From Treponema sp. (GTDB lineage: Bacteria > Spirochaetota > Spirochaetia > Treponematales > Treponemataceae), in NCBI RefSeq assembly GCF_017469785.1, contig NZ_JAFUFU010000008.1: a DNA stretch of 64,000 bases. One strand, 5' to 3'. Below, one piece after another: positions 41,559-56,035 of this stretch. The translations under genes and the position numbers were made by a program. Numbering within the stretch: the first letter of the stretch is position 1; every line of letters starts with the position of its first letter. The notes under the pieces are model-generated. The model worked only from the letters and a program-made list of their open reading frames with translations, ran no database searches and was not told where the DNA came from.

Positions 41559-42290
41559 CTATTTTCCTTCTGTTGGCTCACTTTCGTCGAAAACTTCCCG
41601 CTTGAAAAGCACGATGTCACGGATTTTGATTGAGCAGGCTGTGTTAAGTTCTGTTTTTGTCGTTGAATCGCTGATAATCGGCACGTCGAAGTAGTGGTAT
41701 GATTTTTCGTAGCCCTCGACTTCGATTTCTAGCTCGAATTCAAATTTGCGGCTTTCTCCTGCTTTTGCTGCTGGAATTGGTTTAGCCCAGAAAGTGAAAG
41801 CTCCCTTTGTGCTCTGGAATGTCTGGGTCGGATTTGCCCATGTCATATCCACCATGTCAACAGAGGCTCCATCAAGCTTGAGCGTTATTTTTGCTCCTGA
41901 AATTGGCTCGAAAGTGCTTCCGTCGAGAACCGTTCCGGAGAAAGTTGGGAAGTTGTAGCTTGGGTTTTCTTCTTTTTTTACTTCACATTCTTCTCTTGGA
42001 AGTGTATGGAAAGGTCGCTTGGTTGAAGATATTATCCTGAGACCGTCCATAGCGACGGCAGAAATATCCGCGATGAGCTGGTGGTCGGCAAAGATTTCAT
42101 TTGAATGAGTGACTCCGCGACCAGAAACTACATATTTCGGTGGAATTCGGTTGAGGACATAACTGATTGTATCAAGACGGCAGTTTTTGCAATCGCATGT
42201 GAGCCAGGGAGAGTTTGCTTTTTTTACCTGTTCGTAAAGGGCATTGACCTCTGCAGTGACTAAATCTTCCATCATGTTGTGTACGTTCAT
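41559..42290 (-). CDS. ComFB-domain protein with a carboxypeptidase-regulatory-like beta-sandwich C-domain
   Basis: A GGAGATAATT RBS precedes the ATG at 42290. NVHNMMEDLVTAEVNALY...CDCKNCRLDTISYVLNRIPPKY is ComFB-like. GTVLDGSTFEPISGAKITLKL is CarboxypepD_reg-like. Confidence 0.65.
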   Translation of the reverse strand: MNVHNMMEDLVTAEVNALYEQVKKANSPWLTCDCKNCRLDTISYVLNRIPPKYVVSGRGVTHSNEIFADHQLIADISAVAMDGLRIISSTKRPFHTLPREECEVKKEENPSYNFPTFSGTVLDGSTFEPISGAKITLKLDGASVDMVDMTWANPTQTFQSTKGAFTFWAKPIPAAKAGESRKFEFELEIEVEGYEKSYHYFDVPIISDSTTKTELNTACSIKIRDIVLFKREVFDESEPTEGK

Positions 42291-42378
42291 AATTATCTCC
42301 AGTAAAGCGTGCCATAAAGACACGCTTTTATTATAAGCGATATTCTTGCTTAAAGCAACCTTTATATTAGTGCCTTCC

Positions 42379-44406
42379 TTAGTTTCCGCCCTTGCGCGTG
42401 TAGGCCGCCAAACCGCCTGCCATGATGATTTTGGCTGAGCGCTCTGCGATGTCGTTCACGCACTCAATCTCGGTTTTGCCGTTGATGAGGACTTTGAAAG
42501 GCTTGCCGTTTTTAAGGGAATCGTCCAAATCCTTAAGCTCCAAGGTGTCTCCCTGAGCGATTTTGTCGTAGTCAGCGGGATTTTTGAAGGTCATGGGGAT
42601 GATTCCGTAGTTAATCAAGTTTGCCTTGTGGATTCGGGCAAATGATTTTGTGATTACGGCACGAACGCCCAGGTACATCGGTCCCAAAGCCGCATGCTCA
42701 CGGCTTGAGCCCTGACCGTAGTTTTCGCCGCCTACGACACAGCAGTCGGCGAATTTTGCCTCTTCGCTTCGGGTGTAGAAAGTCTCGTCCAAGCGGGCCA
42801 GGGTGAATTTTGAGATTTCAGGGATGTTGCTTCGTAATGGAAGAACTTTTGCTCCGGCCGGCATGATGTCGTCTGTGGAGACATTGTCGCTTGCCTTCAG
42901 TCTGACCGGGAGAGAAAGATTTGACTTGTACTCGCGGCAGGCCGGGCATGGCTTAATGTTAGGCCCGCGAAGGATTTCGACTTTTGAAGCCTCGCTCTCT
43001 GGCAGTGGCGGGATAACCATGGCACGGTTTGTGGCGCAGTTTAAGACCATTGGGCTAGACAATCGAGGATCGTTTCCGTCCAGCATGGAGATTCTGACAC
43101 CTGTCTTGTAAGCCGGGTCTTCGTAAGAAAGTGTCTCTGCCTCGGTGAAAACGCCTGTTACGGCGGCGGCCGCTGCTGTCTCCGGCGAGACGAGGTATAC
43201 ATTTGCGTCGGCGGTTCCGCTTCGTCCCTTGAAGTTTCGGTTGAAGGTGCGGAGGGTTACGCCCTCGCTGTTGGGAGCGAAGCCCTGGCCGATACAGGGA
43301 CCGCAGGCAGATTCCAGGATTCGGAAGCCGGCTTCGATTAAGTCCTCAAGGATTCCGGCCTTGCTTGCCATCAAGAGAGTAGTGCGGCTTCCCGGTGCGA
43401 TTCCGGCCTCTACTCCCGGAGCGATGTGCTTTCCTTTTACGATTGCGGCAACGCTTTCAAGGTCGTCCAAAGAAGAGTTCGTGCAGCTTCCGATTACGAC
43501 CTGAGTGACTTTTTTGCCGGAAAGATTTTTTACGCTGTCGATTACATCAGGATTGTGGGGGCAGGCTGCCAGCGCGTGAAGCTCGTCCAGGTTGATTTCG
43601 ATGAGCTTGTCATATTCAGCTCCCTCATCTGCCTTCTGCTCGCTCCAGTCTGAGCCGCGACCCATTGACTCAAGGAAGCGTTTCGTAGAGGCGTCTGACG
43701 GGAAGATAGAGCAGGTGGCTCCAAGCTCCGCGCCCATGTTTGTGATTGTGGCTCTCTGGGGAACGGTGAGTTTTTCAACGCCCTCACCGAAGTATTCGTA
43801 GATTGCGCCTGTTCCGCCCTTTACGGTTTCGCGGCGGAGAACTTCAAGGATGATGTCCTTTGCGCCGACGCCTTTTTTGAGTTTTCCAGTCAATTTTACG
43901 CCGAAGATTTTTGGCATGGGTGTGTGGAAGGCGCCTCCGCCCATAGCCACGGCTACGTCAAGACCGCCCGCACCGATTGCAATCATGCCGATTCCGCCGC
44001 CAGTCGGGGTGTGGCTGTCAGAGCCGAGAAGTGTTTTGCCCGGTTTTCCGAAAGACTCCAGGTGAACCTGATGGCAGATACCGTTGCCCGGTCGGGAGAA
44101 ATAAAGTCCGTATTTTGCCGCCACTGACTGCAAGTATCGGTGGTCGTCCATGTTCTTGAAGTCGGTCTGCAAGGTGTTGTGGTCGATGTATGAAACTGAA
44201 AGCTCTGTCTTTACGCGGGGAATTCCGATCGTCTCAAACTGAAGGTAGGCCATGGTGCCGGTGGCGTCCTGAGTGAGCGTCTGGTCAATGTGAATCGCGA
44301 TGTCCTCGCCTCGTTGGATTGGAGTGCCCTTTTTGAAATCGATATTGGGGCAGGCTTCTGGAACTATGTGTTCCTGCAAGATTTTTTCGGCAAGCGTAAG
44401 AGCCAT
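42379..44406 (-). CDS. Aconitate hydratase (aconitase superfamily, large and swivel domains fused)
   Basis: GSDSHTPTGG, IGSCTNSS and CGPCIG are the Fe-S ligands. GENYGQGSSREHAA marks the swivel domain. Confidence 0.85.
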   Translation of the reverse strand: MALTLAEKILQEHIVPEACPNIDFKKGTPIQRGEDIAIHIDQTLTQDATGTMAYLQFETIGIPRVKTELSVSYIDHNTLQTDFKNMDDHRYLQSVAAKYGLYFSRPGNGICHQVHLESFGKPGKTLLGSDSHTPTGGGIGMIAIGAGGLDVAVAMGGGAFHTPMPKIFGVKLTGKLKKGVGAKDIILEVLRRETVKGGTGAIYEYFGEGVEKLTVPQRATITNMGAELGATCSIFPSDASTKRFLESMGRGSDWSEQKADEGAEYDKLIEINLDELHALAACPHNPDVIDSVKNLSGKKVTQVVIGSCTNSSLDDLESVAAIVKGKHIAPGVEAGIAPGSRTTLLMASKAGILEDLIEAGFRILESACGPCIGQGFAPNSEGVTLRTFNRNFKGRSGTADANVYLVSPETAAAAAVTGVFTEAETLSYEDPAYKTGVRISMLDGNDPRLSSPMVLNCATNRAMVIPPLPESEASKVEILRGPNIKPCPACREYKSNLSLPVRLKASDNVSTDDIMPAGAKVLPLRSNIPEISKFTLARLDETFYTRSEEAKFADCCVVGGENYGQGSSREHAALGPMYLGVRAVITKSFARIHKANLINYGIIPMTFKNPADYDKIAQGDTLELKDLDDSLKNGKPFKVLINGKTEIECVNDIAERSAKIIMAGGLAAYTRKGGN

Positions 44407-44482: not shown

Positions 44483-45199
44483 ATGGGAAATAAACTTCGT
44501 TCTGTTTTTTTCTGTCTCTTTCTCACGTTGCCCGTCCTGCAGTTTTTATCCTGCTCAAATTCGGCTCAGGATCTTGTCATCGAAGAAGATATTCCCACTC
44601 TCAGGTATACAGCCGATTCTTTATACAATTCTACTGTCTGGACCGAAGAGCTTGAAATTGACAGACTTACGTCAAAGGTGTCTTCTGTGGCAGGAGTCTC
44701 TTCAAAACTCAATCTTACGCCCCTCATACTTTTGGCCCAGAATCCTTCTTGTTTCACCCCGGTTTTTCCTGTGCTGGATTCCTTCGGTTCCCTTGACACG
44801 ACTCTGATTTCAAAATCGCTCCGGGAAATGCTTTCCTCTTTTGCTGAGTCTGTTTCTGTGAATTCTGATGCCGACTCATTCATGTCAAAAGACTGTCTCT
44901 ATTCCCTTTCATTGTTTTATTCCGATTTCACACGGATTTTCTCCGGATGTTTTGATTTTTCGGATCAGGCTGTCTCTTCTGCCGAAAGTGATGAGACCCA
45001 GTTTACGAAAAAGCATTTTTTCACTTCTTTTGTGCTCGGCCAGCCTTTTGTTGACGGCGTGAGCTATGAGGTGCCGCTGAAATTTTTCTGTGACAAGGCG
45101 ACAATGACGCTTTCTGTTTTTTGCGTCGAGCAGTCTGGCTCATGGAAGATTGAGCAGATTCAGATATGCGATTGGGAGATTATCAATGGAAAGGACTGA
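44483..45199 (+). CDS. Lipoprotein, function unknown
   Basis: MGNKLRSVFFCLFLTLPVLQFLSC contains a lipobox. Confidence 0.65.
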   Translation: MGNKLRSVFFCLFLTLPVLQFLSCSNSAQDLVIEEDIPTLRYTADSLYNSTVWTEELEIDRLTSKVSSVAGVSSKLNLTPLILLAQNPSCFTPVFPVLDSFGSLDTTLISKSLREMLSSFAESVSVNSDADSFMSKDCLYSLSLFYSDFTRIFSGCFDFSDQAVSSAESDETQFTKKHFFTSFVLGQPFVDGVSYEVPLKFFCDKATMTLSVFCVEQSGSWKIEQIQICDWEIINGKD

Positions 45200-46019
45200 A
45201 CTGACCGGCATCGAACGGCAGCTGGTCCTTGAGTATCTCATGGACGGAAATGCCGCCGTAACGCTCTCCTTTGCAAAAAACGCTGATGATTATGCAGGAG
45301 ATAAAAATGTTGTTTCCGCGGAATTTCCTGTCGCCCTCAGGGCGGAGCAGCTCAAGGTTCTGGAGCAGGGTGTCATTCTCTTAAAAAACGTTCCGGCGGC
45401 GGCTGCTGACTTTGAGGGTAAGACTGTAAAAGTTCAGTTTTATTTCAACAGGCTCTCACTGTTTTTTTTCTCAAAGGTCCAAAGAGTTTCCGCAGGGCTT
45501 GCCCTTGTCGTTCCTTCTGTCATTTCAAAATCCGAGGACAGGCAGGTGAGCGAACGGTCAGGCCTTTCGGTTACGGTCTACTATGAAACGGCTCTTCAAA
45601 AAAAATTGAATCAAAAAATAGATATTTCATGTGACTTTGACAGCCGTTTCCCGCTTTTTGTTCGCTCTGATTATAAGAAAATTGTCGATTCCTATCTTTC
45701 AGGGCCTGAAAACAGAAAAAAAGACGCAATCGAAAACCGTGCCTACGCTCCTCTTGTCATCTATCTTGATTCCGAGCGGATTTTGTTTGGGGCCAGGAAA
45801 TCTGATATGCCTTTTTCATCCGGCGTTGAGTATGCGGTTCTTGTTCGTTTCCCGATCGCGGGTCCGATAAAAGAGCGCAAGGTGTATTTCACCTGCCTGG
45901 TTGATGAGATGTTTGAGAACTATGAATGCAACCGTCTCTGTGCTTGTGCGCGAATTTCTTCTATCCGTGAGGAAGATAACCGCTTTATGAGCGATAAAGT
46001 GCTTGCTCGTTCCCTTTGA
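45186..46019 (+). CDS. Hypothetical cytoplasmic protein
   Basis: The ATG at 45186 overlaps the upstream stop by 14 nt. No motif is recognised. Confidence 0.5.
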   Translation: MERTELTGIERQLVLEYLMDGNAAVTLSFAKNADDYAGDKNVVSAEFPVALRAEQLKVLEQGVILLKNVPAAAADFEGKTVKVQFYFNRLSLFFFSKVQRVSAGLALVVPSVISKSEDRQVSERSGLSVTVYYETALQKKLNQKIDISCDFDSRFPLFVRSDYKKIVDSYLSGPENRKKDAIENRAYAPLVIYLDSERILFGARKSDMPFSSGVEYAVLVRFPIAGPIKERKVYFTCLVDEMFENYECNRLCACARISSIREEDNRFMSDKVLARSL

Positions 46020-46069: not shown

Positions 46070-46552
46070 ATGTTATCGAATGCCGGCTTGCAGTTGCAGG
46101 CTTTGTTGAACAGTTCTGTTTTTTTAGCGTGCGTGTTCAGCTGGCTTTGCGCGCAGTTCATAAAAACAGTCATCAAGCTCTTTTCAGGAAATGTCCATAG
46201 TCTCAGCGAATTGTTCGAGCTTCTTTTTTGGGGTACAGGGAGTATGCCGTCAAGTCATTCTTCGATAACATCCTGCTTGTGCACGTCAATCGCATATCAT
46301 TCAGGTATTGATTCTGATATCTTTATCCTTTCGCTGGTGTTCTATCTTGTAACGATTCGTGATGCTGTCGGAGTCCGGCGCGCAAACGGTCGGCAGGCAC
46401 GGCGGCTCAATGAAATCGGTCAGATTCTCAAAGAAAAAGGTTTGTACGACGATTTCAAAAAACTGAAGGAAGTGAACGGTCATTCTCCCATGGAGGCTTT
46501 TGTCGGAAGTCTCCTTGGTTTTTTTATTGGAATCGCCTTCTGCGTCCTTTAA
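46070..46552 (+). CDS. DUF212 / divergent PAP2 (acid phosphatase / vanadium haloperoxidase-related) membrane protein
   Basis: GSMPSSHSS and DAVGVRRANGRQA...GHSPMEAFVG are family signatures. Confidence 0.75.
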   Translation: MLSNAGLQLQALLNSSVFLACVFSWLCAQFIKTVIKLFSGNVHSLSELFELLFWGTGSMPSSHSSITSCLCTSIAYHSGIDSDIFILSLVFYLVTIRDAVGVRRANGRQARRLNEIGQILKEKGLYDDFKKLKEVNGHSPMEAFVGSLLGFFIGIAFCVL

Positions 46553-46567
46553 AATGGTTGGTCGCGA

Positions 46568-47962
46568 ATGAATTTTAATGTAAAAATATTTCTGCCTGCT
46601 CTTGTGGCTTTTGTAATGTTCTTCTTGCTCTGTCAGTTCCGCTCGGTTCCAGTCAGTCAGTTCTGGAAAGGGTACAGAATGCTCTATGTATACAGCGAGC
46701 AACTTTCAGAGAATGAAATTCTTGCAGTCCTTGAGAAAAATGGCTGCTCTTCCATTGTCTCTTCCAGTGTTCAGAAACTTCCTGTGTCATCTCAGATTGC
46801 CCCTGTCCAGGCTCAGGATTCCCGCTCTTATCTTTTTCGACGTTCAGAATTCTTCACGGACAAAAATCATCGCGCAATGGTTTTCTATGTTCCTGACAGT
46901 CAGGTCTCGGCCATGGAGCGGGGAATGCGCGAGTTGGCCGCTTTTCAGGGAACGGCACTCGGTACTGACGGAAAAGCTTCTTTTCCCTGGATTGCTCCTA
47001 TAATCACTCTTCTGTTGTTTGCTCTCTTCATCGCTTTTTCAAAAAACAGGATTCTGTATCTGTTGGGCTCTTTTTTCTTTATATTGCTTGCTTTCTGCCG
47101 TCCTCTTTTCACTGTCGGCGCGGCTTCCATGCTGTATCTTTTCGCTTTCTTCCTCTTTCACCGTTTCTGGGCGAGAGCTTATTTCTTGAAAACGGCCATG
47201 AACAGTCCGTATGTGCTTTTGTTTTCCTTGTCGCCGCTTCTTGTGCTTCTCTTATCTTCTCCCTTGCTCTCGGTTTTTTATCTTCTTGCGTTTATCGGCT
47301 CTGCCAGCGTCCTTTATCTATATTTCCTTTTCCAGCAATGGGTTGAAAGCCGCTGTTCTTTTAAGCCTGTCTTTATCCGCAGCGCAAGGATGATTCCCGT
47401 ATTCGGCAGGCTCGGCATCCGTCTGCTTGCGGCTCTTTTTGCCTCACTTGTCGCGATTCTTCTCTGCTTCAAGCTTTCGGGAAGCGTTGCCTCGATTTCA
47501 GCTTCTGCGGCCATGCCTTCCTTGCCGGCTCCAGTATCCCGTGATTCCGGCGAGCTTGTGAATTTCTCAGATTTTATCAGCTGGACCTGGAATACCGTGA
47601 CTTTCCCATACAAGAAAATCACGGAAAATACCGGCTCAGAGCCTCGAGAAGGGGAGCGGGTTTCTATAAAGGACTATCAGGAGCAGGATGGTCGCATAGT
47701 AACCGTGGAAACTCAGGCTTACGTTTATAATTCTGATTTCCGGGATTCTGTCTATAAACTTGTCGAAAATCTTGATTATCCGGCCCTTGAGAAAATGATG
47801 CTAAGGCAGGGGAAAAATTCCGGCTACGCTTATACAAAAAAAGCGTCGGTTTCAACGTCAGAACGATTCGCCTCTCTCCTCATCATTGTTTTCTGCACTT
47901 TGACGGCTGCAATCGGAATCTATTATATTATAGGAAGAAAACGTTATGGTCTCAGCATCTAA
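46568..47962 (+). CDS. Polytopic membrane protein, unknown function, overlapping the rnfC-like start by 17 nt
   Basis: One N-terminal TM segment, about 7 central TM segments and a C-terminal TM anchor. No motif is recognised. Confidence 0.55.
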   Translation: MNFNVKIFLPALVAFVMFFLLCQFRSVPVSQFWKGYRMLYVYSEQLSENEILAVLEKNGCSSIVSSSVQKLPVSSQIAPVQAQDSRSYLFRRSEFFTDKNHRAMVFYVPDSQVSAMERGMRELAAFQGTALGTDGKASFPWIAPIITLLLFALFIAFSKNRILYLLGSFFFILLAFCRPLFTVGAASMLYLFAFFLFHRFWARAYFLKTAMNSPYVLLFSLSPLLVLLLSSPLLSVFYLLAFIGSASVLYLYFLFQQWVESRCSFKPVFIRSARMIPVFGRLGIRLLAALFASLVAILLCFKLSGSVASISASAAMPSLPAPVSRDSGELVNFSDFISWTWNTVTFPYKKITENTGSEPREGERVSIKDYQEQDGRIVTVETQAYVYNSDFRDSVYKLVENLDYPALEKMMLRQGKNSGYAYTKKASVSTSERFASLLIIVFCTLTAAIGIYYIIGRKRYGLSI

Positions 47963-49274
47963 TTTTATTTCTGCCGACAAAGATTTGCTTGTCTCTTCAG
48001 TGAATGCTTTCCTTCCTAAAACCGTATTTATTCCCCTCTGTGAGGATGATTCAGAAGATGTTGAAGTCACTGTTTCTGAAGGCTTGCGGGTAAAGGAAGG
48101 AGACGTCATCGCAAAAAACCGGAGTATGCACATTCATTCATCTGTTCCAGGCATCGTGCGTAAGATTGCCCAGATGCAGTACAGCAATGGAAAACAGGGA
48201 CTGTGCGCCGTAATTGATTTGAATGGGGCTTTTTCATATCTTGGACGCAAGTCTGTAAGGCAAGACTGGAAAAACTATGACAGCTCAACCATTCATTTTC
48301 TGCTCAAGGAAAACGGGGTAGTGAATACCTTCGATAAGGAAATTCCTATTTTCTCCCAAATAAAGAAATGCCTGGCGGCAAATGGCAGTATCCTTGTTCT
48401 GAGGCTTTTTGATTCTGATCCAAGCTATGTAACAGATTCTTTTATCGCAAAGCATCATCTTGCGGAGGTTCTTGAAGGGGCTGCTCTTGTTGCCCGTGCA
48501 GCTTCGGCAAAGAATATAGTAATCGCCTATTCGGTGAGCGACAAGGATTCCTTAAAATCAGAGCTGGATAATCTCCTTGCCCGTTCAAATGAGCTTTTAG
48601 GCCCAAATCTTGAGGCCTTTACTGTAGGCATGGACACAAAAAAATATCCTGCCGGAACCATGCATGACATCACCGCCGCTATTAAAAAAACATATAAAAG
48701 TGATTTGTTCTCAAAGCTCGGAAAAAAAGATTTGTTCATTGACAGCGTGTCGGCCTTTTCTTCCTATAATGCCGTGGTTCTCGGTCGGCCTGTGGTAAGC
48801 GATTTTGTGCATGTTACCGGGGAATGCTTGAATTCCGCCGCATTGCTGAATGTCAGAGTCGGAACGACCTTGAGCGATATCGTCAATCAGTGCGGTGGCT
48901 TTAAGCGGAAACTGTCAAAAATCATCATAAACGGAATCATTGCCGGAAAAGCCGTGAGCAGCCTTGACGTGCCGGTTAATCGTGGCGTAAAATCCGTTGA
49001 ATTTATTCCAGTCCACAAGGTCAAAATTCAGAATACGGAGAATTGCATTCGTTGCGGAAATTGCCGCAAAATCTGTCCGGTACATTTATGGCCCGGAAAT
49101 CTATATCGTGTCGCTCATCTCCAGACTCTCGAAACGGCATGTACGAGTGACAAAAATGCCCATGAGACTGTCGTTCTTTGCACTGAGTGTGGATTGTGCA
49201 ACGCAGTGTGTCCGTCCAGGCTGCCTCTCAGCCAGACAATATCTTTGCTCAAGGATTCATTCAATGAAAAATAA
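47946..49274 (+). CDS. RnfC-like subunit (divergent)
   Basis: The RnfC_N-like SEGLRVKEGDVIAKN...HIHSSVPGIV and two ferredoxin motifs (CIRCGNCRKICP, CTECGLCNAVCP). The GxGGAGFP nucleotide/FMN motif was not found. Confidence 0.6.
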   Translation: MVSASNFISADKDLLVSSVNAFLPKTVFIPLCEDDSEDVEVTVSEGLRVKEGDVIAKNRSMHIHSSVPGIVRKIAQMQYSNGKQGLCAVIDLNGAFSYLGRKSVRQDWKNYDSSTIHFLLKENGVVNTFDKEIPIFSQIKKCLAANGSILVLRLFDSDPSYVTDSFIAKHHLAEVLEGAALVARAASAKNIVIAYSVSDKDSLKSELDNLLARSNELLGPNLEAFTVGMDTKKYPAGTMHDITAAIKKTYKSDLFSKLGKKDLFIDSVSAFSSYNAVVLGRPVVSDFVHVTGECLNSAALLNVRVGTTLSDIVNQCGGFKRKLSKIIINGIIAGKAVSSLDVPVNRGVKSVEFIPVHKVKIQNTENCIRCGNCRKICPVHLWPGNLYRVAHLQTLETACTSDKNAHETVVLCTECGLCNAVCPSRLPLSQTISLLKDSFNEK

Positions 49275-50343
49275 GGAAAACGCATATAAATCTGTCTTTC
49301 TCAGTCCCTTTAAGTATCTCAGGCCTTCTGTCCGTGTCGAGTCTTATATCGTGCTGGTCTTGCTATGCCTGCAGGTACTCATGCTGATTCTCACGAAGTC
49401 TGTGGATTCCCTTTTAATTGTCCTTGCCACCCTGCTTGCTTCCTATGCGGCTGATTTCAGCAATGCCGAGCAGAACTACAAAAAGCCTTTCGTTGTAATC
49501 GCAAGCTCAATCCGGGCTCTTGTAATCGCTTTGCTTCTGCCAGCCGGATTTCCGCCCCTCGCGGTTTTTTTCATTTCCTTTGCGGTTCTTTTCATAAACA
49601 AGCATACTTTAGGCGGATTTGCTAATTCATGGATTAATCCCGCCGCCATCACGATTGCAATATGCTGGATTATTGGAATGAAATTCTTCCCGGAACTTAC
49701 AGTTTCTGACGCTGCCTTGCAGTCGAAGAATATCGCCCTTTCGCTTATCAGTGACGGAACTTTCCCGCAAAATTCCCTTGATGTTGCCGTCACGAATTTC
49801 CTCAACAGGCGTTTGTTCAGTTTATTCGGTGTTTCGATTCCTGAAGGCTATTTCTCTATTTTCTGGGATTCTCATTCAGCTATTCCTGCTTTCCGTTTTA
49901 ATCTACTGACTCTTGTTTCTTCTATCATATTGCTTTCTTGCGATGTGCTTAATCCCATCATTCCCTCGGTTTTCATATGTACCTATGCTGTGCTCGTGAA
50001 AGTTGCGGCACCTGTTTTTTATGGGGGTGTCATTTTTCAGGGAGATGTAATCCTTGCATTGCTTTCAAGCGGTACGCTTTTCTCGACTTTTTTCTTGCTT
50101 CAATGGCATGGAACAACTCCTTTCTCAAACCGTGGAAAATGGCTGTACGGTCTTTTTGCCGGGGTTCTGGCATTCTTTATTCTGGGAATCGGACTTTCCC
50201 CGGTGGGGTTTGCCTTCATCATTTTGATTTTGAATATTCTTTCGCTTTTCATACAGAGCGTTGAGAATCATTTCCTTAAAGATTATACCAACTCCGTGCT
50301 TTTGACTAAGAGTAAGGCTGTAAAGGAAGGAAACGATGCGTAG
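49264..50343 (+). CDS. RnfD/NqrB-like membrane subunit (divergent)
   Basis: GGFANSWINPAA aligns with GGLGQNPFNPAM of RsxD. LLSSGTLFSTFFLL...SNRGKWLYGLFAG aligns with LLSGATMLGAFFILTDP...TNRGRLIFGALAG. The start at ATG 49264 overlaps the rnfC-like stop. Confidence 0.6.
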   Translation: MKNKENAYKSVFLSPFKYLRPSVRVESYIVLVLLCLQVLMLILTKSVDSLLIVLATLLASYAADFSNAEQNYKKPFVVIASSIRALVIALLLPAGFPPLAVFFISFAVLFINKHTLGGFANSWINPAAITIAICWIIGMKFFPELTVSDAALQSKNIALSLISDGTFPQNSLDVAVTNFLNRRLFSLFGVSIPEGYFSIFWDSHSAIPAFRFNLLTLVSSIILLSCDVLNPIIPSVFICTYAVLVKVAAPVFYGGVIFQGDVILALLSSGTLFSTFFLLQWHGTTPFSNRGKWLYGLFAGVLAFFILGIGLSPVGFAFIILILNILSLFIQSVENHFLKDYTNSVLLTKSKAVKEGNDA

Positions 50344-50827
50344 GTTTTTAAATCTTGATAATAAATCCAAAAGAATACTGAAAAATTTTCTCATATTTTT
50401 CGGACTGATTTTCGGAATGGCTGCCATACTGGTCATTTTTTCTTTGGCGGCTGGAAATTCTTGGAAGATCGGGCTTGCGGTGGAAGTTCAGTCTGTCCTT
50501 GATTCATATCCGGACGGGCAGTATACGGTCGGGAAAAACCTTGAACTCAAGTCGGCTCTTAGTACCAGCTCGGCTGTTTATTCCCTGATAAAAAAAGACG
50601 AGCGCAAAAACGAAAAATATTACGGCATAATAGTGAGAATCCCCTCTGTTCTGGGGCCTCTTCCCGCGGTTTTCATTTACAACGATTCTAAGGGCGTATC
50701 TTTCGCCGGGTATGCTGTCGACAATGGTAAGGCGGAAGAGACTGTGGATATACGGATTGCAAACAGTATCATGAGTTATTGGGAAGAGATGATTCCTAAA
50801 ATTATTGAAAAGGCTGAGGCCAATTAA
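50336..50827 (+). CDS. RnfG-position single-TM protein, truncated relative to RnfG
   Basis: An N-terminal TM segment plus a small periplasmic domain. At 163 aa, it ends before the region that carries the S/TGAT flavinylation motif in RnfG. Confidence 0.4.
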   Translation: MRRFLNLDNKSKRILKNFLIFFGLIFGMAAILVIFSLAAGNSWKIGLAVEVQSVLDSYPDGQYTVGKNLELKSALSTSSAVYSLIKKDERKNEKYYGIIVRIPSVLGPLPAVFIYNDSKGVSFAGYAVDNGKAEETVDIRIANSIMSYWEEMIPKIIEKAEAN

Positions 50828-50838
50828 AGGAAAGGACT

Positions 50839-51477
50839 ATGAGCGACAGTAAAAAAATATATTTCTACATTGCGACTAATCTCGCTTTTCTAATTCCCGT
50901 GCCCGGGCGATTTGCCTATGCCGTGATTATGGCTCTGCTTTTTAATCTTCAGATGGCGACAGTCACGCTGTTTTTTCATGCGATTCATCGTCTTCATCTC
51001 GCGAATATGCAGAATGCGCTCCTTTCGCTTCTTATAATTTCCCTCTGTATATTCTACAAGCAGCTGCTGATTATTTTTTGTCCGGTTGTGGCCCTTACGC
51101 TCGGTTTTTGTATATATCTGCCGATGCTTGCATCTGTCATAATGGATTTCTTCTTCCTTGATTATGAACAGGGAGGCAAGGCTCATCTGCTGGAAAATAT
51201 CAAAAAATCAGGAATCATGAGCATATTTATGCTTGTTTTCTTCAGCATCCGGGATGTGTTCGGATACGGCACATTTACTTTGCCAGGGTGGAAAAGACTT
51301 GTAGTTTTTCATCTTCCGTATAATCCTGAAAGCACCAGTTCAAGTGTATTCCTTGCCACTATTCCCGGAAGTTTAGTGCTGATTGCATTGCTCTTGACTA
51401 CATATATCTTCCTGAGAAAAAAATTACGGATTGTCACGAATGCTTATGAAGCCTTGAGCGAAGGGGGAAATTCATGA
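50839..51477 (+). CDS. RnfE/NqrD-like membrane subunit (divergent)
   Basis: SIRDVFGYGTFTLPG aligns with SLREIIGNGTLF, and VFLATIPGSLVLIALLL with FLLAMLPPGAFIGLGLML. The LGLCP and TNC cysteines are absent. Confidence 0.5.
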   Translation: MSDSKKIYFYIATNLAFLIPVPGRFAYAVIMALLFNLQMATVTLFFHAIHRLHLANMQNALLSLLIISLCIFYKQLLIIFCPVVALTLGFCIYLPMLASVIMDFFFLDYEQGGKAHLLENIKKSGIMSIFMLVFFSIRDVFGYGTFTLPGWKRLVVFHLPYNPESTSSSVFLATIPGSLVLIALLLTTYIFLRKKLRIVTNAYEALSEGGNS

Positions 51478-52040
51478 TTTCTCTCATCGTATATTATCTT
51501 TTGTCTGCATGTGTCGTTCTGTTTTATGGGGTGGGAATCCATAAATCCTTTTCCCATAATGATACCCTCTCTACCTCCTTGCTTACCTGTTTCAAGTCGC
51601 TTTTTTCAGCAGGCTCTACGACTGCGGTTACTTATCTGATGATGAATTGGCTCCTTGTTCCCGCTCATCTGGAAGAATTTTTTCCCTTCCTTGCCGCCCT
51701 CCTGTTCATTTTATTCTCTACGCTTACAGAAATATTTATCGGAATAGGAATAAGGCAGTCACCGATTGATTTTTCCATTCCGCTTCTTGCCGTGTTTCTT
51801 GGTCTCAATGAAGGAGTGTCCATCGGCTATGCCGTTATGATTTCTTGCCTGTGCATAATTTCTTTTTATGTCATGCTTGTTGTTTTTCATTGCGTTCGCC
51901 AGCGCGTCAGTTTTTACACACTTGAAGGAGGACTCAAGACTTATTGTGTCCTGCTTATCTGCCTTGCGGTTGTCATGATTGCGATTTACGGCGTCAATGT
52001 CTCTTGGTTCTATCTATATCTTGGAGGGGGAGCAAAATGA
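51474..52040 (+). CDS. RnfA/NqrE-like membrane subunit (divergent)
   Basis: Six TM segments, appropriate length and position. The conserved Cys motifs are absent. Confidence 0.45.
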   Translation: MISLIVYYLLSACVVLFYGVGIHKSFSHNDTLSTSLLTCFKSLFSAGSTTAVTYLMMNWLLVPAHLEEFFPFLAALLFILFSTLTEIFIGIGIRQSPIDFSIPLLAVFLGLNEGVSIGYAVMISCLCIISFYVMLVVFHCVRQRVSFYTLEGGLKTYCVLLICLAVVMIAIYGVNVSWFYLYLGGGAK

Positions 52041-52570
52041 TTCTTTCTTTCGTATTCCTGTTTTTGATGCTTCTTCTGATTACAGCTGTTGTATTTTATC
52101 TGTTTTGTTTTTTTATTCCGGCCTTGAAACTTAAATATGACGGAATAAGCACGACTTTAGCGACGAAAATTCAGTTCTATGAGGATGATGTGGAGCCCTT
52201 TACCGGGGATAGGACAAAAATCGCTGCCATCGATGATTCAGCTGACTCTGATTTTGAAAAGCGGCTCCTGTATCAGGGGGATAAAAACTGCCGGCTTTTC
52301 CATAATATTTACAATTCTGAATACAAAAATCCCAAAATCTGCATAGGGTTTGGCGATTGTGTCAGGATTTGCCCTCAGGAAGCCATAAAAATCCGTTTCA
52401 ACCGTGCGGAGATTATGGGAACCTGTAATGGTTGCGGCAAGTGTATTGATTATTGTCCTGAACATATCATTTCTTTGGTTCCCCGCAGCAAAAAAGATTC
52501 AGAATCTTTCCCAAAAGGCTTTAAATTTTGGGCCGCTTGTTATAAACTTTTATCTTGGGTGTGGGGGTAG
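52037..52570 (+). CDS. RnfB-like subunit: N-terminal TM segment plus a ferredoxin domain
   Basis: The TM segment is MILSFVFLFLMLLLITAVVFYLFCFF. CIGFGDCVRICP has its second Cys replaced by Phe. CNGCGKCIDYCP is canonical. Confidence 0.5.
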   Translation: MILSFVFLFLMLLLITAVVFYLFCFFIPALKLKYDGISTTLATKIQFYEDDVEPFTGDRTKIAAIDDSADSDFEKRLLYQGDKNCRLFHNIYNSEYKNPKICIGFGDCVRICPQEAIKIRFNRAEIMGTCNGCGKCIDYCPEHIISLVPRSKKDSESFPKGFKFWAACYKLLSWVWG

Positions 52571-52588
52571 TAGTTTTTTTATTGCCCT

Positions 52589-54586
52589 ATGAAAGTTTTA
52601 AATATCTGTTTTTACATAACGGGAACAAGTTCACTCCTTTCCCGTCACGAAGAATTCGAAAAGAAATATCAAGATGTTTACAGGAATATTGTCTCTTTCT
52701 TGTTTGAGCAGAACGAAGGTTGTTTTTCCATATCTTTGTCTGGTTCCCTGCTTTCATGGATTGGCCGTGAGCATGCAGAATTTACCCAGCTGCTCTCAAA
52801 ACTCATAAGCCGTAAGCAGGCCGAGCTTCTTGGTGGCGGCTATTACAATCCTGTTTTTCCCCTTCTTTTTGCCCAGGACAGGACCGGCCAGATTGATTTG
52901 ATGACTTCAGAAGTCCGTCGTTTTGTCGGAAAAAGACCACATGGTATGACGGTTTTTCACTCAATCTGGGATAACAGTCTGGTTCCCTGCATTCAGTCAT
53001 GTGGCATGGATTATGTGCTTTTGGACAGTTCCCTGATTCCAAAAGAAAAGCAGTTTTATTTGCCGCTTTTGGTAACGGAGCAGGGCAAGAGCATTAATGT
53101 GCTTTCCGTCAGCCGGGAATTCATTCCAAACATGCTTATCGCTCCCAGGGAGTATCTGCGGAACCTTTTTGACACTGTAAATTATCTCACAAAGGATGAT
53201 TCTTATAATTCTCTCACTGATGAGCGTGTCGTTGCGATAAAAATCGAAGAGGGGCAGTTCAAAAAGCTCTATGAGTCAAAATGGCTCGACAAGCTTTTTG
53301 TGGCCGCGAAAGAATATTTTCCTGATTCTGTAAAAATCACGCTCCCAATCGAATATCTTCATCGTGAGCAGACTCGTGTTCCTTCATATATTCCGGCGGG
53401 AATCCAGTCGGATGTGGCAAAATGGGCCAAAAAGGCCTACGAGGAATCTAATTCAAGTGCCTGTCCGCCGACAATTTTTGACTTTCTCCTCACATATAAA
53501 CAAAACAAAGCCCTGTACAACCGTATGCTCTATATTTCCCTGCTGATAAACCAGTGCAAGGGTGACAAGACCCGCAAAAAGGTTGCCCGGGAAAAGCTGT
53601 GGATTGCTCAGAGCGGAGAAGGCTATGTATGCGATCCGGACGGTGTCTTTGCGAATAATGCGATGCGGCAGCTGGCTTACCGAAGCCTGACGGAAGCTGA
53701 GAAACTTGTCCGTGAGGCTCAGAACGGCTCTTTTAAAGAGATGGTTTCCTGCTATGATTACAACGGTGACGGTTTCAATGAATATATTTGCGCGATGAAA
53801 CAGTATAATGCCTGCGTGTCGCTGAAGGGTGCCCAGATTACGGAACTTGACATAATTCACAATACTGGAAATTATGCCGATTCTCCGAGACGCATAAAAC
53901 AATTCGATAAATATGAAGACAAGTATCATCGGGGTCTTTTTGTAGACCATCTTTTCTCAATCGATGAATTTTCTGACTACAAGAAAAACACCCCTACTGG
54001 AAACGGAATATTCTCTCAGGTCCTGTTCAGGCAGCTTGATTTTGACGCCCACCGCCATGAAATAAAGCTTTCCGGCTCAGGGACCTTTTCTCCGATTCAG
54101 GCCGGTGTTACGCTCATCAAGAAATATATCGCCAATTCAAATGGATTTGCCCTCCAGTACATCCTGAAAAATGAAAGTCCATTTGATTTGAAAGGCGTCT
54201 TCGTTGCGGAGTCCAACTACGCCCAGACTGATTTTTCTTCCGTAAAAGCCCATTCTTACAAGGTCGAGGTGATTTCCAACGATGAAAAATCTGAAATAGA
54301 TGCAAAAGAGGCTCCCCGGTCAAGCAAGAAAGTCTCCTACATGCAGATAACGGATATTTCAAATGATATTTCCTTTGTCTATGAGCCAAATGAATTGTGC
54401 GACATCGTGTGCATGCCTATTCTTTTCCGCCGCCCGTCTTCCTCAAGCGATGTCCCGACCATTTCAGGAAATGCTTTCGTCGCTTCCCTGTGCTGGAATG
54501 TGGAGCTTGAGGCCGGTAAAGAAATTGAAAAGACTATCAACTATTCGATTATCGTTCCGAAGAAGAACAAGAAAAAGAGAGTCTAG
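52589..54586 (+). CDS. GH57-like protein with non-canonical catalytic positions
   Basis: AELLGGGYYNPVFPLL resembles GH57 region II. The expected H-x-H-Q-P (here CFYITGTSS) and W-x-x-E nucleophile region (here VFHSIWDNS) are not conserved by eye. Confidence 0.45.
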   Translation: MKVLNICFYITGTSSLLSRHEEFEKKYQDVYRNIVSFLFEQNEGCFSISLSGSLLSWIGREHAEFTQLLSKLISRKQAELLGGGYYNPVFPLLFAQDRTGQIDLMTSEVRRFVGKRPHGMTVFHSIWDNSLVPCIQSCGMDYVLLDSSLIPKEKQFYLPLLVTEQGKSINVLSVSREFIPNMLIAPREYLRNLFDTVNYLTKDDSYNSLTDERVVAIKIEEGQFKKLYESKWLDKLFVAAKEYFPDSVKITLPIEYLHREQTRVPSYIPAGIQSDVAKWAKKAYEESNSSACPPTIFDFLLTYKQNKALYNRMLYISLLINQCKGDKTRKKVAREKLWIAQSGEGYVCDPDGVFANNAMRQLAYRSLTEAEKLVREAQNGSFKEMVSCYDYNGDGFNEYICAMKQYNACVSLKGAQITELDIIHNTGNYADSPRRIKQFDKYEDKYHRGLFVDHLFSIDEFSDYKKNTPTGNGIFSQVLFRQLDFDAHRHEIKLSGSGTFSPIQAGVTLIKKYIANSNGFALQYILKNESPFDLKGVFVAESNYAQTDFSSVKAHSYKVEVISNDEKSEIDAKEAPRSSKKVSYMQITDISNDISFVYEPNELCDIVCMPILFRRPSSSSDVPTISGNAFVASLCWNVELEAGKEIEKTINYSIIVPKKNKKKRV

Positions 54587-54611: not shown

Positions 54612-55148
54612 TTAGGCTTTGATTTCGCCTTGTGAGAGCTGCAGGTACATCTGGTCTGCAAGGCCGAATCCTGCGTTTTTGGTCATCATCGTGGCGTATT
54701 CGTCGTATAACATATCCTCATACATGTTTTTTGCGTAGCTTGCCTGGGAATCTGCTTTCATTACGGTTTTTCGCATTGACGAAAGCATCATTTTGACCAC
54801 ATAAGACTCCATTTCAAGGGATTTTTCGTAGAGTTTTGATGTCCGGTCGATTTCCCGCGGAGCGACATGGGGATTTGCCTGGTTTGCGGCGGCTCCCTGG
54901 GGCAGGGCGTGCTTGTCGCTTTCTGCCATGAAACTTCCGGTAAAACCTGATGTCCAGTCACCGTTGATTCGGCCGTCATAAGAAGTTTGAGAAGAAGAAA
55001 GATTTTTACCGACTCCGGCATTTTCGTTTTTAGCGAGAGACCGGGCCTCGTTTACAAGCGCATCAAATTTTCCTTTCTCAGAAGTAATCTTAGCGCCAAG
55101 AGAAGCTCCTTCGCCTTTAGTAATAGCCGAAATTCCACCGATTGTCAT
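54612..55148 (-). CDS. flgJ: Flagellar rod-binding (FlgJ N-terminal-like) protein
   Basis: The C-terminal Rod_binding-like sequence YVVKMMLSSMRKTV...MYEDMLYDEYATMMTKNAGFGLADQMYLQL. Confidence 0.7.
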   Translation of the reverse strand: MTIGGISAITKGEGASLGAKITSEKGKFDALVNEARSLAKNENAGVGKNLSSSQTSYDGRINGDWTSGFTGSFMAESDKHALPQGAAANQANPHVAPREIDRTSKLYEKSLEMESYVVKMMLSSMRKTVMKADSQASYAKNMYEDMLYDEYATMMTKNAGFGLADQMYLQLSQGEIKA

Positions 55149-55240
55149 ATTTGCTCCAATTCATAATTTATAATGCAAAATGCATAATTATTTAGAAGTT
55201 ATTCTCCGTTCATTATACATTCAGCATTGTGCATTATACA

Positions 55241-56035
55241 TTATCTTTTAAGGTTTACTGCCGTTGAGAGCATTGAGTCTGTGGTCTGGATGGCTTTTGA
55301 GTTGAACTCGTAGGCTCTCTGGGCCACAATCATCTGAACCATTTCGTTTACTACGCTTACGTTCGACATCTCAACGAACTTGTGCTTGGTTACGCCGAAG
55401 CCCTCAAAGCCCGGGCGACCTGCGATTGCCTCGCCTGACGCGTTCGTCACTTTATAGAGATTGTCGCCTACAGCCTCAAGGCCTGCGTTGTTGGGGAAGC
55501 GGTAAAGCTCAATCTGAGCCACGTCAACAGGATCGTCCTGACCGAAGATTTTTACGGAAACCCGGCCGGTGTCATCGATTGTAAGTGTATGGATGTCAAA
55601 ACCTTCCGGCATGATTACTTCCGGCTGAACTCGAAGACCGTTAGAATTCACCAGCTGTCCGTTCATGTCGATTTTGAAGGAGCCGTCGCGGGTGTAGGCA
55701 TAGCTTCCGTCATATTGCATGACGCGGAAAAATCCGTCTCCGACTACAGCAACATCAGTGTCAACGCCTGTGTTCTGGAGTGAGCCTTGTGTGAAAACGC
55801 GCTGAGTTGCCGCAACCTTTGTACCGGCTCCCTGCTGGATTCCCACAGGTGTGACCGTGTCTTCTGTTGCCGGAGTGCCCGCCAGTTTCACGTTCTGATA
55901 GATAAGATCCTCGAACTCAACACGCTGTTGTTTGAATCCTGTTGTGTTGACATTTGAGAGGTTGTTTGAAATCGTGTCAAGGTTTTGCTGTTGACCGTTC
56001 ATACCTGTCGCTGCTGTCCAAAGACTTCTTACCAT
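55241..56035 (-). CDS. flgG: Flagellar basal-body rod protein FlgG
   Basis: MVRSLWTAATGMNGQQQNLDTISNNLSNVNTTGFK together with a conserved C-terminal rod motif. Confidence 0.9.
   Translation of the reverse strand: MVRSLWTAATGMNGQQQNLDTISNNLSNVNTTGFKQQRVEFEDLIYQNVKLAGTPATEDTVTPVGIQQGAGTKVAATQRVFTQGSLQNTGVDTDVAVVGDGFFRVMQYDGSYAYTRDGSFKIDMNGQLVNSNGLRVQPEVIMPEGFDIHTLTIDDTGRVSVKIFGQDDPVDVAQIELYRFPNNAGLEAVGDNLYKVTNASGEAIAGRPGFEGFGVTKHKFVEMSNVSVVNEMVQMIVAQRAYEFNSKAIQTTDSMLSTAVNLKR

Follow-up and report, generated by a model that had tools for sequence, protein, structure and literature searches.

A 64,000-nucleotide stretch of DNA from Treponema sp. (RefSeq assembly GCF_017469785.1, contig NZ_JAFUFU010000008.1; the whole stretch is called the window below) carries a block of nine genes whose core has the order rnfC-D-G-E-A-B. 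The evidence supports descent of this Treponema complex from the Rnf ferredoxin:NAD+ ion pump, because the C-, D-, A- and B-like proteins match Rnf subunits by sequence or profile, because the predicted structure of the E-like protein matches RnfE/NqrD, and because gene order and translational coupling are retained. Across the family, however, the canonical cofactor sites appear to be truly absent, and not merely hard to align: the alignments support the loss of the loops for flavin mononucleotide (FMN) and NADH in C, of the flavinylation sites in D and G, and of the four cysteines in A and E. Only the C-like subunit has redox sites that are retained universally, namely its two [4Fe-4S] motifs. 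We therefore favour, with a probability of about 0.55, the interpretation that the block encodes an Rnf-derived scaffold repurposed for another task rather than a canonical Rnf. Any specific function, such as ion or solute conduction or signalling, is a best guess, in which our confidence is much lower than in the repurposing itself.

To describe the family, one genome per species was scanned, which gave 137 confirmed loci. Orthologues of every block gene were taken from the best 80 of these 137 loci, and the counts below rest on them. All 80 belong to Treponema/Spirochaetaceae; they include isolates of T. saccharophilum, T. socranskii and T. zioleckii and a metagenome-assembled genome (MAG) of T. 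berlinense, and T. pallidum is not among them.

Layout of the block

The block spans positions 46070-54586 of the plus strand and consists of nine tightly packed, co-directional genes:

46070-46552, plus strand: DUF212/divergent PAP2-family membrane protein, 160 amino acids (Pfam PF02681, E = 1.8e-37); first gene of the block
46568-47962, plus strand: orphan polytopic membrane protein "M464", 464 amino acids; no family match; overlaps the C-like gene by 17 nucleotides
47946-49274, plus strand: RnfC-like protein, 442 amino acids (full-length match to 7zc6_C, E = 3e-38)
49264-50343, plus strand: RnfD-like protein, 359 amino acids (PF03116, 114.5 bits); start taken as ATG 49264
50336-50827, plus strand: bitopic protein in the RnfG position, 163 amino acids; no family match, named by position only
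50839-51477, plus strand: RnfE/NqrD-like protein, 212 amino acids (by predicted structure, AlphaFold2 and Foldseek)
51474-52040, plus strand: RnfA-like protein, 188 amino acids (family profile against 9eri_A, E = 5e-6)
52037-52570, plus strand: RnfB-like protein, 177 amino acids (family profile against 9eri_B, E = 1e-29); start taken as ATG 52037
52589-54586, plus strand: GH57-like protein, 665 amino acids (PF03065, E = 1.4e-19, plus AmyA-gluTrfs_C); last gene of the block

The first-pass annotation had described a six-gene complex with the order and sizes of rnfC-D-G-E-A-B. Order and sizes were confirmed, as were the ATGA junctions at 51474 (E-like/A-like) and 52037 (A-like/B-like); the other overlaps measure 17 nucleotides (464-residue gene/C-like), 11 (C-like/D-like) and 8 (D-like/G-position). 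The overlapping polytopic gene upstream and the GH57-like gene downstream were also as described. The limits of the unit were not: nine genes are conserved, one of which, B, is optional.

Shine-Dalgarno-like sequences (AGGA or GGAG) precede most starts in the block. In the mechanical list of open reading frames (ORFs), the D-like and B-like frames run up to TTG 48997 (448 amino acids) and TTG 51944 (208 amino acids), respectively; orthologue alignments and the Shine-Dalgarno-like sequences indicate that the true starts are ATG 49264 and ATG 52037. A promoter and terminator scan returned sites no more numerous than in shuffled sequence.

Relationship of the core subunits to Rnf

The C-like protein aligns over its full length with solved RnfC chains: 7zc6_C from Clostridium tetanomorphum (E = 3e-38), 9eri_C (3e-28) and 8ahx_C (4e-22). 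Its domains follow each other as in RnfC: RnfC_N comes first, then a degenerate 51K/FMN domain, then SLBB and, at the C-terminus, a 2x[4Fe-4S] domain. Of the profile models proposed earlier, RnfC_N, SLBB and Fer4 score above their Pfam cut-offs but Complex1_51K does not (29.3 versus 31.2 bits); the TIGR01945 score is also below its cut-off (183.8 versus 245.95 bits). The closest protein, with 99% identity, comes from a "Treponema sp." MAG, and NCBI names these proteins only "SLBB" or "4Fe-4S dicluster domain-containing protein".

The D-like protein reaches 114.5 bits with PF03116, for a cut-off of 27.7, and so aligns recognisably with RnfD, as claimed at first; with TIGR01946 it scores 63.5, below the cut-off of 207. 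The family profile matches RnfD 9eri_D with E = 2e-16, but only over the N- and C-terminal thirds (profile positions 10-131 and 218-338).

As a single sequence, the A-like protein matches no family. A profile of 56 sequences aligns nearly full length with RnfA (9eri_A, 5e-6; 7zc6_A, 5.8e-6; 8ahx_A, 1.1e-4). The B-like protein is made of a transmembrane (TM) anchor, one two-cluster ferredoxin-like domain and an amphipathic tail. Its family profile finds RnfB from Acetobacterium woodii (9eri_B, 1e-29) and C. tetanomorphum (7zc6_B, 2e-25), with alignments confined to chain residues 96-195.

That the E-like protein aligns recognisably with RnfE was also part of the first-pass annotation, but at the sequence level this did not hold. 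The protein has no Pfam or NCBIfam match, a 52-sequence profile finds no PDB chain, and an hhalign comparison of the E-like and A-like families gives nothing; a Pfam scan of each member yields a single match to PF02508 among 52 proteins, with E = 0.18. It is the predicted structure that matches. The AlphaFold2 (AF2) model, for which, as for the other predictions, alignments were built from database hits, has a mean predicted local distance difference test score (pLDDT) of 87.2 and a predicted template modelling score (pTM) of 0.79, and shows two interrupted TM helices, with breaks at 19-24 and 89-92. When this model is compared to PDB structures with Foldseek, the top 11 hits are all NqrD/RnfE chains (probability 0.97-1.00, TM-score 0.47-0.70, E = 1.6e-3 to 7e-2), followed by RnfA. 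We thus assign the E-like protein as an RnfE/NqrD homologue by predicted structure only.

The protein in the G position is more elusive. In its model (AF2 pLDDT 80.8), a single TM helix is joined to a small domain that contains a five-stranded sheet. No Pfam or NCBIfam match was obtained, a per-member Pfam scan found FMN_bind in none of 117 relatives, and profiles of 52 and 117 sequences retrieved no match in the PDB. A search of 1.84 billion representatives returned 289 relatives, with no visible bridge to RnfG among them; the 150 best are mostly about 150-200 amino acids long. In a Foldseek search, RnfG chains rank 3, 8 and 18, with weak scores (E = 0.3-0.8). Of the earlier claim on this protein, its length of 163 amino acids and the lack of an S/TGAT motif stand. 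That it is a truncated RnfG, or an RnfG homologue at all, is unproven, given the FMN_bind and profile results.

Absence of canonical cofactor sites

In the C-like protein of the window, NTFDKEIP stands where solved RnfC chains have G(M/L)GGATFP, and RLFDSDP where they have N(A/G)AECEP. The replacement of the FMN/NADH motifs, first noticed by eye, extends to the whole family: among 120 database homologues and 77 locus orthologues, there is not one GxGGAxFP or ECEP. The sequences that took their place are themselves conserved ('GvxNTF' and 'RlfDxDPs', with near-invariant G124, N127, T128, F129, R153, D158 and P159). Likewise, all 78 sequences have the eight cysteines of the Fe-S domain (C367/370/373/377 and C412/415/418/422, forming two CxxCxxCxxxCP motifs), whatever the state of the B gene.

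The stretch of the D-like protein that fails to align with RnfD, residues about 132-217, is where RnfD bears its covalent FMN. This central segment ranks among the best-conserved of the family: D173, T177, N181, P193, G195 and D202 are invariant, and so is an IPAFRFN motif. A weak single-sequence alignment puts LQSKN at the expected flavinylation site. Searched with the strict pattern Dxx[ST]xA[TS], the flavinylation motif (the target of ApbE) occurs in 0 of 68 D-like proteins, 0 of 60 orthologues of the G-position protein and 0 of 179 database G-like proteins.

Cysteines are equally wanting in the membrane pair. The E-like and A-like proteins had been said to lack the LGLCP and TNC cysteines, and family alignments agree: in the D, G, E and A families, conservation stays below 90% in every Cys column, the most divergent lineages included; C81 of the E-like protein stands at 55% and C127 of the A-like protein at 71%. 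None of the 84 E-like homologues contains LG.CP or TNC. At the first helix break, where canonical RnfE has the 'LGLCP' cysteine, the E-like family has an invariant 'PxPGR' (Arg24). The 'LGICP' helix break of RnfA aligns to 'YGiGlnr' in the A-like profile, the family motif being 'YGIGxNR' (Asn-Arg, His23-Lys24 in the window); the TTNC segment falls in a gap.

The first-pass annotation had left open whether this was a repurposed machine or a highly divergent Rnf with motifs that could not be aligned by eye. As profile and family-wide alignments reveal none of these ligands, the second possibility is not borne out, and the first is therefore favoured: Rnf descent and motif absence both hold, while the repurposing itself is what we infer from them.

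Repeated loss of the B subunit

The B-like subunit departs from Rnf in a different manner. The N-terminal single-[4Fe-4S] domain of RnfB is absent from the family profile, whose alignment begins at RnfB residue 96. C85, C102, C108, C112, C130, C133, C136 and C140 are conserved at 90-100%. One position does vary: the first Cys of Cx3Cx5Cx3C(P) is Asn98 in the window and Cys in 38% of the family. It lies four residues upstream of the motif that had been misread in the first-pass annotation, where the Phe of CIGFGDC was taken to replace a second Cys. We rejected CIGFGDC as an eroded ferredoxin motif since canonical RnfB has the same pattern: clostridial sequences show Tyr or Leu at the disputed position (GCLGYGTC in 9eri_B, GCLGLGSC in 7zc6_B), so that this is a normal RnfB signature.

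We scored the state of the B gene in 65 loci and the window. It is full in 41, reduced to a stub lacking Fe-S motifs in about 11 and absent in about 13; the Fe-S domain is thus lost in about 24 of 66 loci. Stubs (loci L046, L047, L049, L050, L057, L061, L070, L072, L033, L078 and L015) encode 80-125 amino acids; all have the TM anchor 'F(I/L)PSLK', none has the Fe-S domain, and most keep the C-terminal 'FxFWxKCY' tail, the exceptions being L015, L033 and L078. In loci with no B gene, the gap between the A-like and GH57-like genes is 4-166 bp, or 257-375 bp in two of them. On a neighbour-joining tree of C-like proteins, these states occur dispersed among six or more clades, which indicates that the Fe-S domain of B was lost repeatedly. 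The B gene is dispensable in many lineages.

Conservation of the block and selection

Linkage of the core to the 464-residue and GH57-like genes is a common feature of the loci: the order DUF212-464-aa-C-D-G-E-A-(B)-GH57 is kept in about 65-70 of the 80 loci and persists down to 36% identity of the C-like protein. DUF212 lies directly upstream of the 464-residue gene in 71 of 80 loci; the 464-residue gene itself is present in 78 and the GH57-like gene in 67. Synteny breaks at both ends of the block. On the upstream side, the gene preceding DUF212 is on the opposite strand in about 50 loci, which marks the block boundary; on the other side, the neighbours downstream of the GH57-like gene vary among loci.

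Intact ORFs of the same length are found in about 70 species, at 36-74% identity. The ratio of nonsynonymous to synonymous substitutions (dN/dS; pairwise Nei-Gojobori, six species pairs) is between 0.02 and 0.29 for each of the nine genes, G, E and A included (0.02-0.06 for DUF212, 0.05-0.20 for the 464-residue gene and 0.03-0.14 for the GH57-like gene). All nine genes are under purifying selection.

Accessory proteins

From its hydropathy, the 464-residue protein would consist of an N-terminal TM segment, a soluble domain of ~110 residues, ~5 TM segments, a second soluble domain of ~130 residues and a C-terminal TM segment. No Pfam, NCBIfam or PDB match was found, even with a 50-sequence profile and per-member Pfam scans.

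The GH57-like protein aligns with the Thermococcus litoralis 4-alpha-glucanotransferase (1k1w, E = 5e-20, residues 5-283). It has in common with this enzyme the N-terminal domain, the C-terminal AmyA-gluTrfs_C domain and region II, in which QxExxGGGYY is conserved. In contrast, the HQP motif of region I is gone, and so are Glu123 and Asp214, which we take to be the nucleophile and acid/base that form the catalytic pair of the T. litoralis enzyme: they align to His124 and Arg213 in the window and, family-wide, to columns of G/N/S/A and R/P/S/T, respectively. The protein is probably a pseudo-enzyme, and not a glycoside hydrolase or transferase. Loss of catalytic residues in a gene that is nonetheless strongly constrained suggests a non-enzymatic, possibly structural role.

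Neither this catalytic loss nor the dispensability of B, the membership of DUF212 in the block or the 2015 T. pallidum precedent discussed below figured in the first-pass annotation.

A possible mechanism and its alternatives

In Rnf, the flexible single-[4Fe-4S] domain of RnfB hands electrons to RnfA/E (PMC12174285). In Rnf and Nqr complexes, electrons can cross the membrane only through the [2Fe-2S] cluster of A/E; flavins of G and D return them, and RnfC-FMN reduces NAD+ (PMC12174285). A 2025 review of RNF/NQR calls the cofactors carried by the four membrane subunits "strictly conserved" and describes them as the energy-conserving core (PMC12174285). NqrA, the homologue of RnfC in NQR, lost all its cofactors yet remains in the complex (PMC12174285).

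We propose that the Treponema complex, lacking a transmembrane electron path, would be unable to link the oxidation of ferredoxin or flavodoxin to the reduction of NAD+. Most likely, the D core and the alternating-access pair of E and A have been retained as a membrane device without redox function; conduction of ions or small solutes, or signalling, is our best guess. Polar or charged residues (Arg24 of the E-like protein; Asn-Arg of the A-like family, His23-Lys24 in the window) would fill the former cluster region. The C-like Fe-S subunit could act as a structural cap, for which NqrA offers a scaffold precedent, or as a cytoplasmic redox sensor or gate. New function might be supplied by the Treponema-specific partners: the 464-residue, G-position, dead GH57-like and DUF212 proteins. 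We put slightly less than even odds on the broader proposal that a machine devoid of transmembrane electron sites, acting with orphan polytopic, PAP2-like and dead GH57-like proteins, serves a function independent of transmembrane electron transfer. Ion or solute conduction, redox-gated signalling and an envelope- or glucan-related task could all be candidates.

Several observations weigh against repurposing. Cofactor absence is deduced from motifs, so that non-covalent flavins and unconventional ligands are possible. The Fe-S cysteines, invariant in the C-like protein and present in B in two-thirds of species, suggest that redox chemistry or sensing matters. The E-like assignment relies on structure prediction and on Foldseek E-values that are modest (1.6e-3 to 7e-2), the G-position protein is named by its place, and the association of the 464-residue, DUF212 and GH57-like proteins with the core is deduced from conserved adjacency. 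Finally, the transport or sensing role is hypothetical.

One alternative is a divergent but working redox ion pump, that is, a ferredoxin- or flavodoxin:NAD+ oxidoreductase with non-covalent flavins and unconventional ligands. Such a pump would explain why the whole six-subunit scaffold and its translational coupling are retained, why the C-like Fe-S motifs are invariant and the two-cluster domain of B is kept in most species, and why DxDP still carries the proline and acidic residues of the ECEP region. It is also the function that Deka et al. proposed for the "noncanonical Rnf" of T. pallidum, encoded by the co-transcribed tp0147-tp0153 genes (PMC4436053, PMC7512555), citing as a precedent archaeal Rnf that has no RnfD flavinylation motif. 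However, five separate stations would each need an unrecognisable substitute: the FMN/NADH site of C, the FMN of D, the FMN of G, the [2Fe-2S] cluster of A/E and the proximal cluster of B. In all lineages, the four cysteines of A/E are gone, and the 2025 review describes their cluster as the only membrane route (PMC12174285); the glycine-rich FMN loop is replaced by a bulky Phe129 and a conserved Asn-Thr; and the Fe-S domain of the electron-input subunit B was deleted repeatedly while the remaining cluster of genes stayed under selection. We consider a working pump unlikely, though it is the main rival. The opposite extreme, a decaying and non-functional rnf remnant, would account for the disappearance of most canonical cofactor motifs and for the ongoing loss of B in several lineages. 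Yet reading frames are intact and of the same length in about 70 species, new family motifs are invariant (NTF in C, IPAFRFN in D, PGR in E), and the cluster is kept in the 1.1-Mb genome of T. pallidum, according to the literature. Decay is effectively refuted by the low dN/dS of every gene (0.02-0.29), and we reject it as extremely improbable.

A further question is whether the accessory genes belong to the machine. The Rnf-like genes alone may be the functional unit, with DUF212, the 464-residue gene and the GH57-like gene as unrelated neighbours kept by inherited synteny. All loci are from one family-level lineage (Treponema/Spirochaetaceae), in which shared ancestry could suffice, and no connection of GH57 or PAP2-like proteins to Rnf is known. 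Inherited synteny alone, however, fits poorly with an order that holds inside the block down to 36% C-like identity and breaks right outside it on both sides, with the 17-nucleotide overlap of the 464-residue gene and the C-like start, or with the strong constraint on a GH57-like protein that has no catalytic residues. In addition, the seven co-transcribed genes tp0147-tp0153 fit a B-less set composed of the 464-residue gene, C, D, G, E, A and GH57 (PMC4436053). We regard unrelated neighbours as an improbable explanation. A repurposed Rnf-derived scaffold, to which the accessory proteins would supply the new role, remains our preferred interpretation.

Genes around the block

Two extra co-directional genes stand just upstream of the block, at 44483-45199 and 45150-46019. 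They encode a 238-residue lipoprotein-like ORF (LSC lipobox) and a 289-residue ORF, neither with a Pfam match. Among the 80 loci, they are found only in the three closest relatives (L001, L003 and L063): the 44483-46019 pair is a lineage-specific insertion. Farther upstream, the minus strand at 41559-44406 encodes a ComFB-domain protein and an aconitase-family protein of 675 amino acids. The downstream flank, at 54612-56035 on the minus strand, encodes a rod-binding (FlgJ-like) protein and the flagellar rod protein FlgG. No canonical Rnf signature was seen elsewhere within the 64-kb window.

Three Treponema-type clusters (L026, L028 and L010) lie on contigs labelled Parabacteroides distasonis, Collinsella sp. 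and "bacterium". These are most likely mis-binned contigs in public MAGs.

Comparison with known systems

Compared to the solved Rnf complexes of C. tetanomorphum (7ZC6), Azotobacter vinelandii (8AHX) and A. woodii (9ERI), the Treponema complex has the same C-D-G-E-A-B order with overlapping start and stop codons, the same domain order in C with 2x[4Fe-4S], homologues of D, A and B, and an E-like protein predicted to adopt the same fold with interrupted helices. It differs in having no FMN/NADH loops in C, no flavinylation motif in D or in the G-position protein, no recognisable FMN_bind domain in the latter and none of the four A/E cysteines. Its B subunit is optional and has no proximal single-cluster domain, and three extra conserved genes are attached.

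Na+-NQR has a homologous membrane core, in which NqrB, NqrD and NqrE correspond to the D-, E- and A-like proteins described here; NqrD is among the top structural hits of the E-like protein. NQR keeps every membrane cofactor, namely the [2Fe-2S] cluster, two covalent FMNs and riboflavin, and gained the NqrF input module, whereas in the Treponema complex the sites for membrane cofactors have been lost and no new input module can be recognised. The two-subunit Nqr/Rnf-like complexes (PMC11334425) are a different system, another Rnf/Nqr offshoot with an RnfD-like protein devoid of a flavinylation site. There, the RnfD-like protein is fused to an NAD-binding domain and accompanied by a flavinylated RnfG-like protein, and outward electron transport has been proposed (PMC11334425); the Treponema cluster has neither a flavinylated subunit nor an NAD-binding module. 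A scaffold that is maintained by selection throughout a genus without its "strictly conserved" cofactor ligands would show that the Rnf architecture can be reused beyond the known electron loop. It would also be a "cofactor knock-out" provided by nature, useful for learning which abilities belong to the D and A/E membrane modules by themselves.

The Treponema variant is partly anticipated by the T. pallidum literature. Deka et al. described in 2015 a "noncanonical Rnf" in which TP0152 is RnfC, TP0151 is RnfD and TP0150-0148 are unassigned TM proteins, with no flavinylation motif and with seven genes, tp0147-tp0153, co-transcribed (PMC4436053). In later papers from the same group, the cluster is still regarded as a flavodoxin-driven chemiosmotic pump central to T. 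pallidum energy conservation (PMC7512555, PMC10194888). In T. denticola there is, in addition, a canonical pump of the Nqr/Rnf type, whose NqrC (TDE0836) is flavinylatable. A literature search on TP0147-TP0154 found only the 2015 article (PMC4436053), and the searched literature contained no report that RnfC has lost its NADH/FMN site, that the A/E cysteines are missing or that B varies, and none of the dead GH57-like protein or the nine-gene block.

Judging from the gene order and features described in that article (PMC4436053), and thus from the literature only, our block very probably corresponds to tp0147-tp0153. Both come from the same genus and have no flavinylation motif; in T. pallidum, recognisable RnfC and RnfD are followed by three unassignable TM proteins, and the seven genes match the B-less form of the block, seen for example in T. 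socranskii (L066). The difference lies in the interpretation, as Deka et al. read a working flavin-based pump. If the two are orthologous, the sequence evidence argues against the model of flavodoxin oxidation, NAD+ reduction and ion pumping held since 2015, because the complex would have no NADH/FMN site, no membrane route for electrons and an optional input subunit. Should both orthology and our interpretation hold, the syphilis spirochete would be devoid of an Rnf-type redox-driven ion pump, and its flavin-based chemiosmotic model would need revision.

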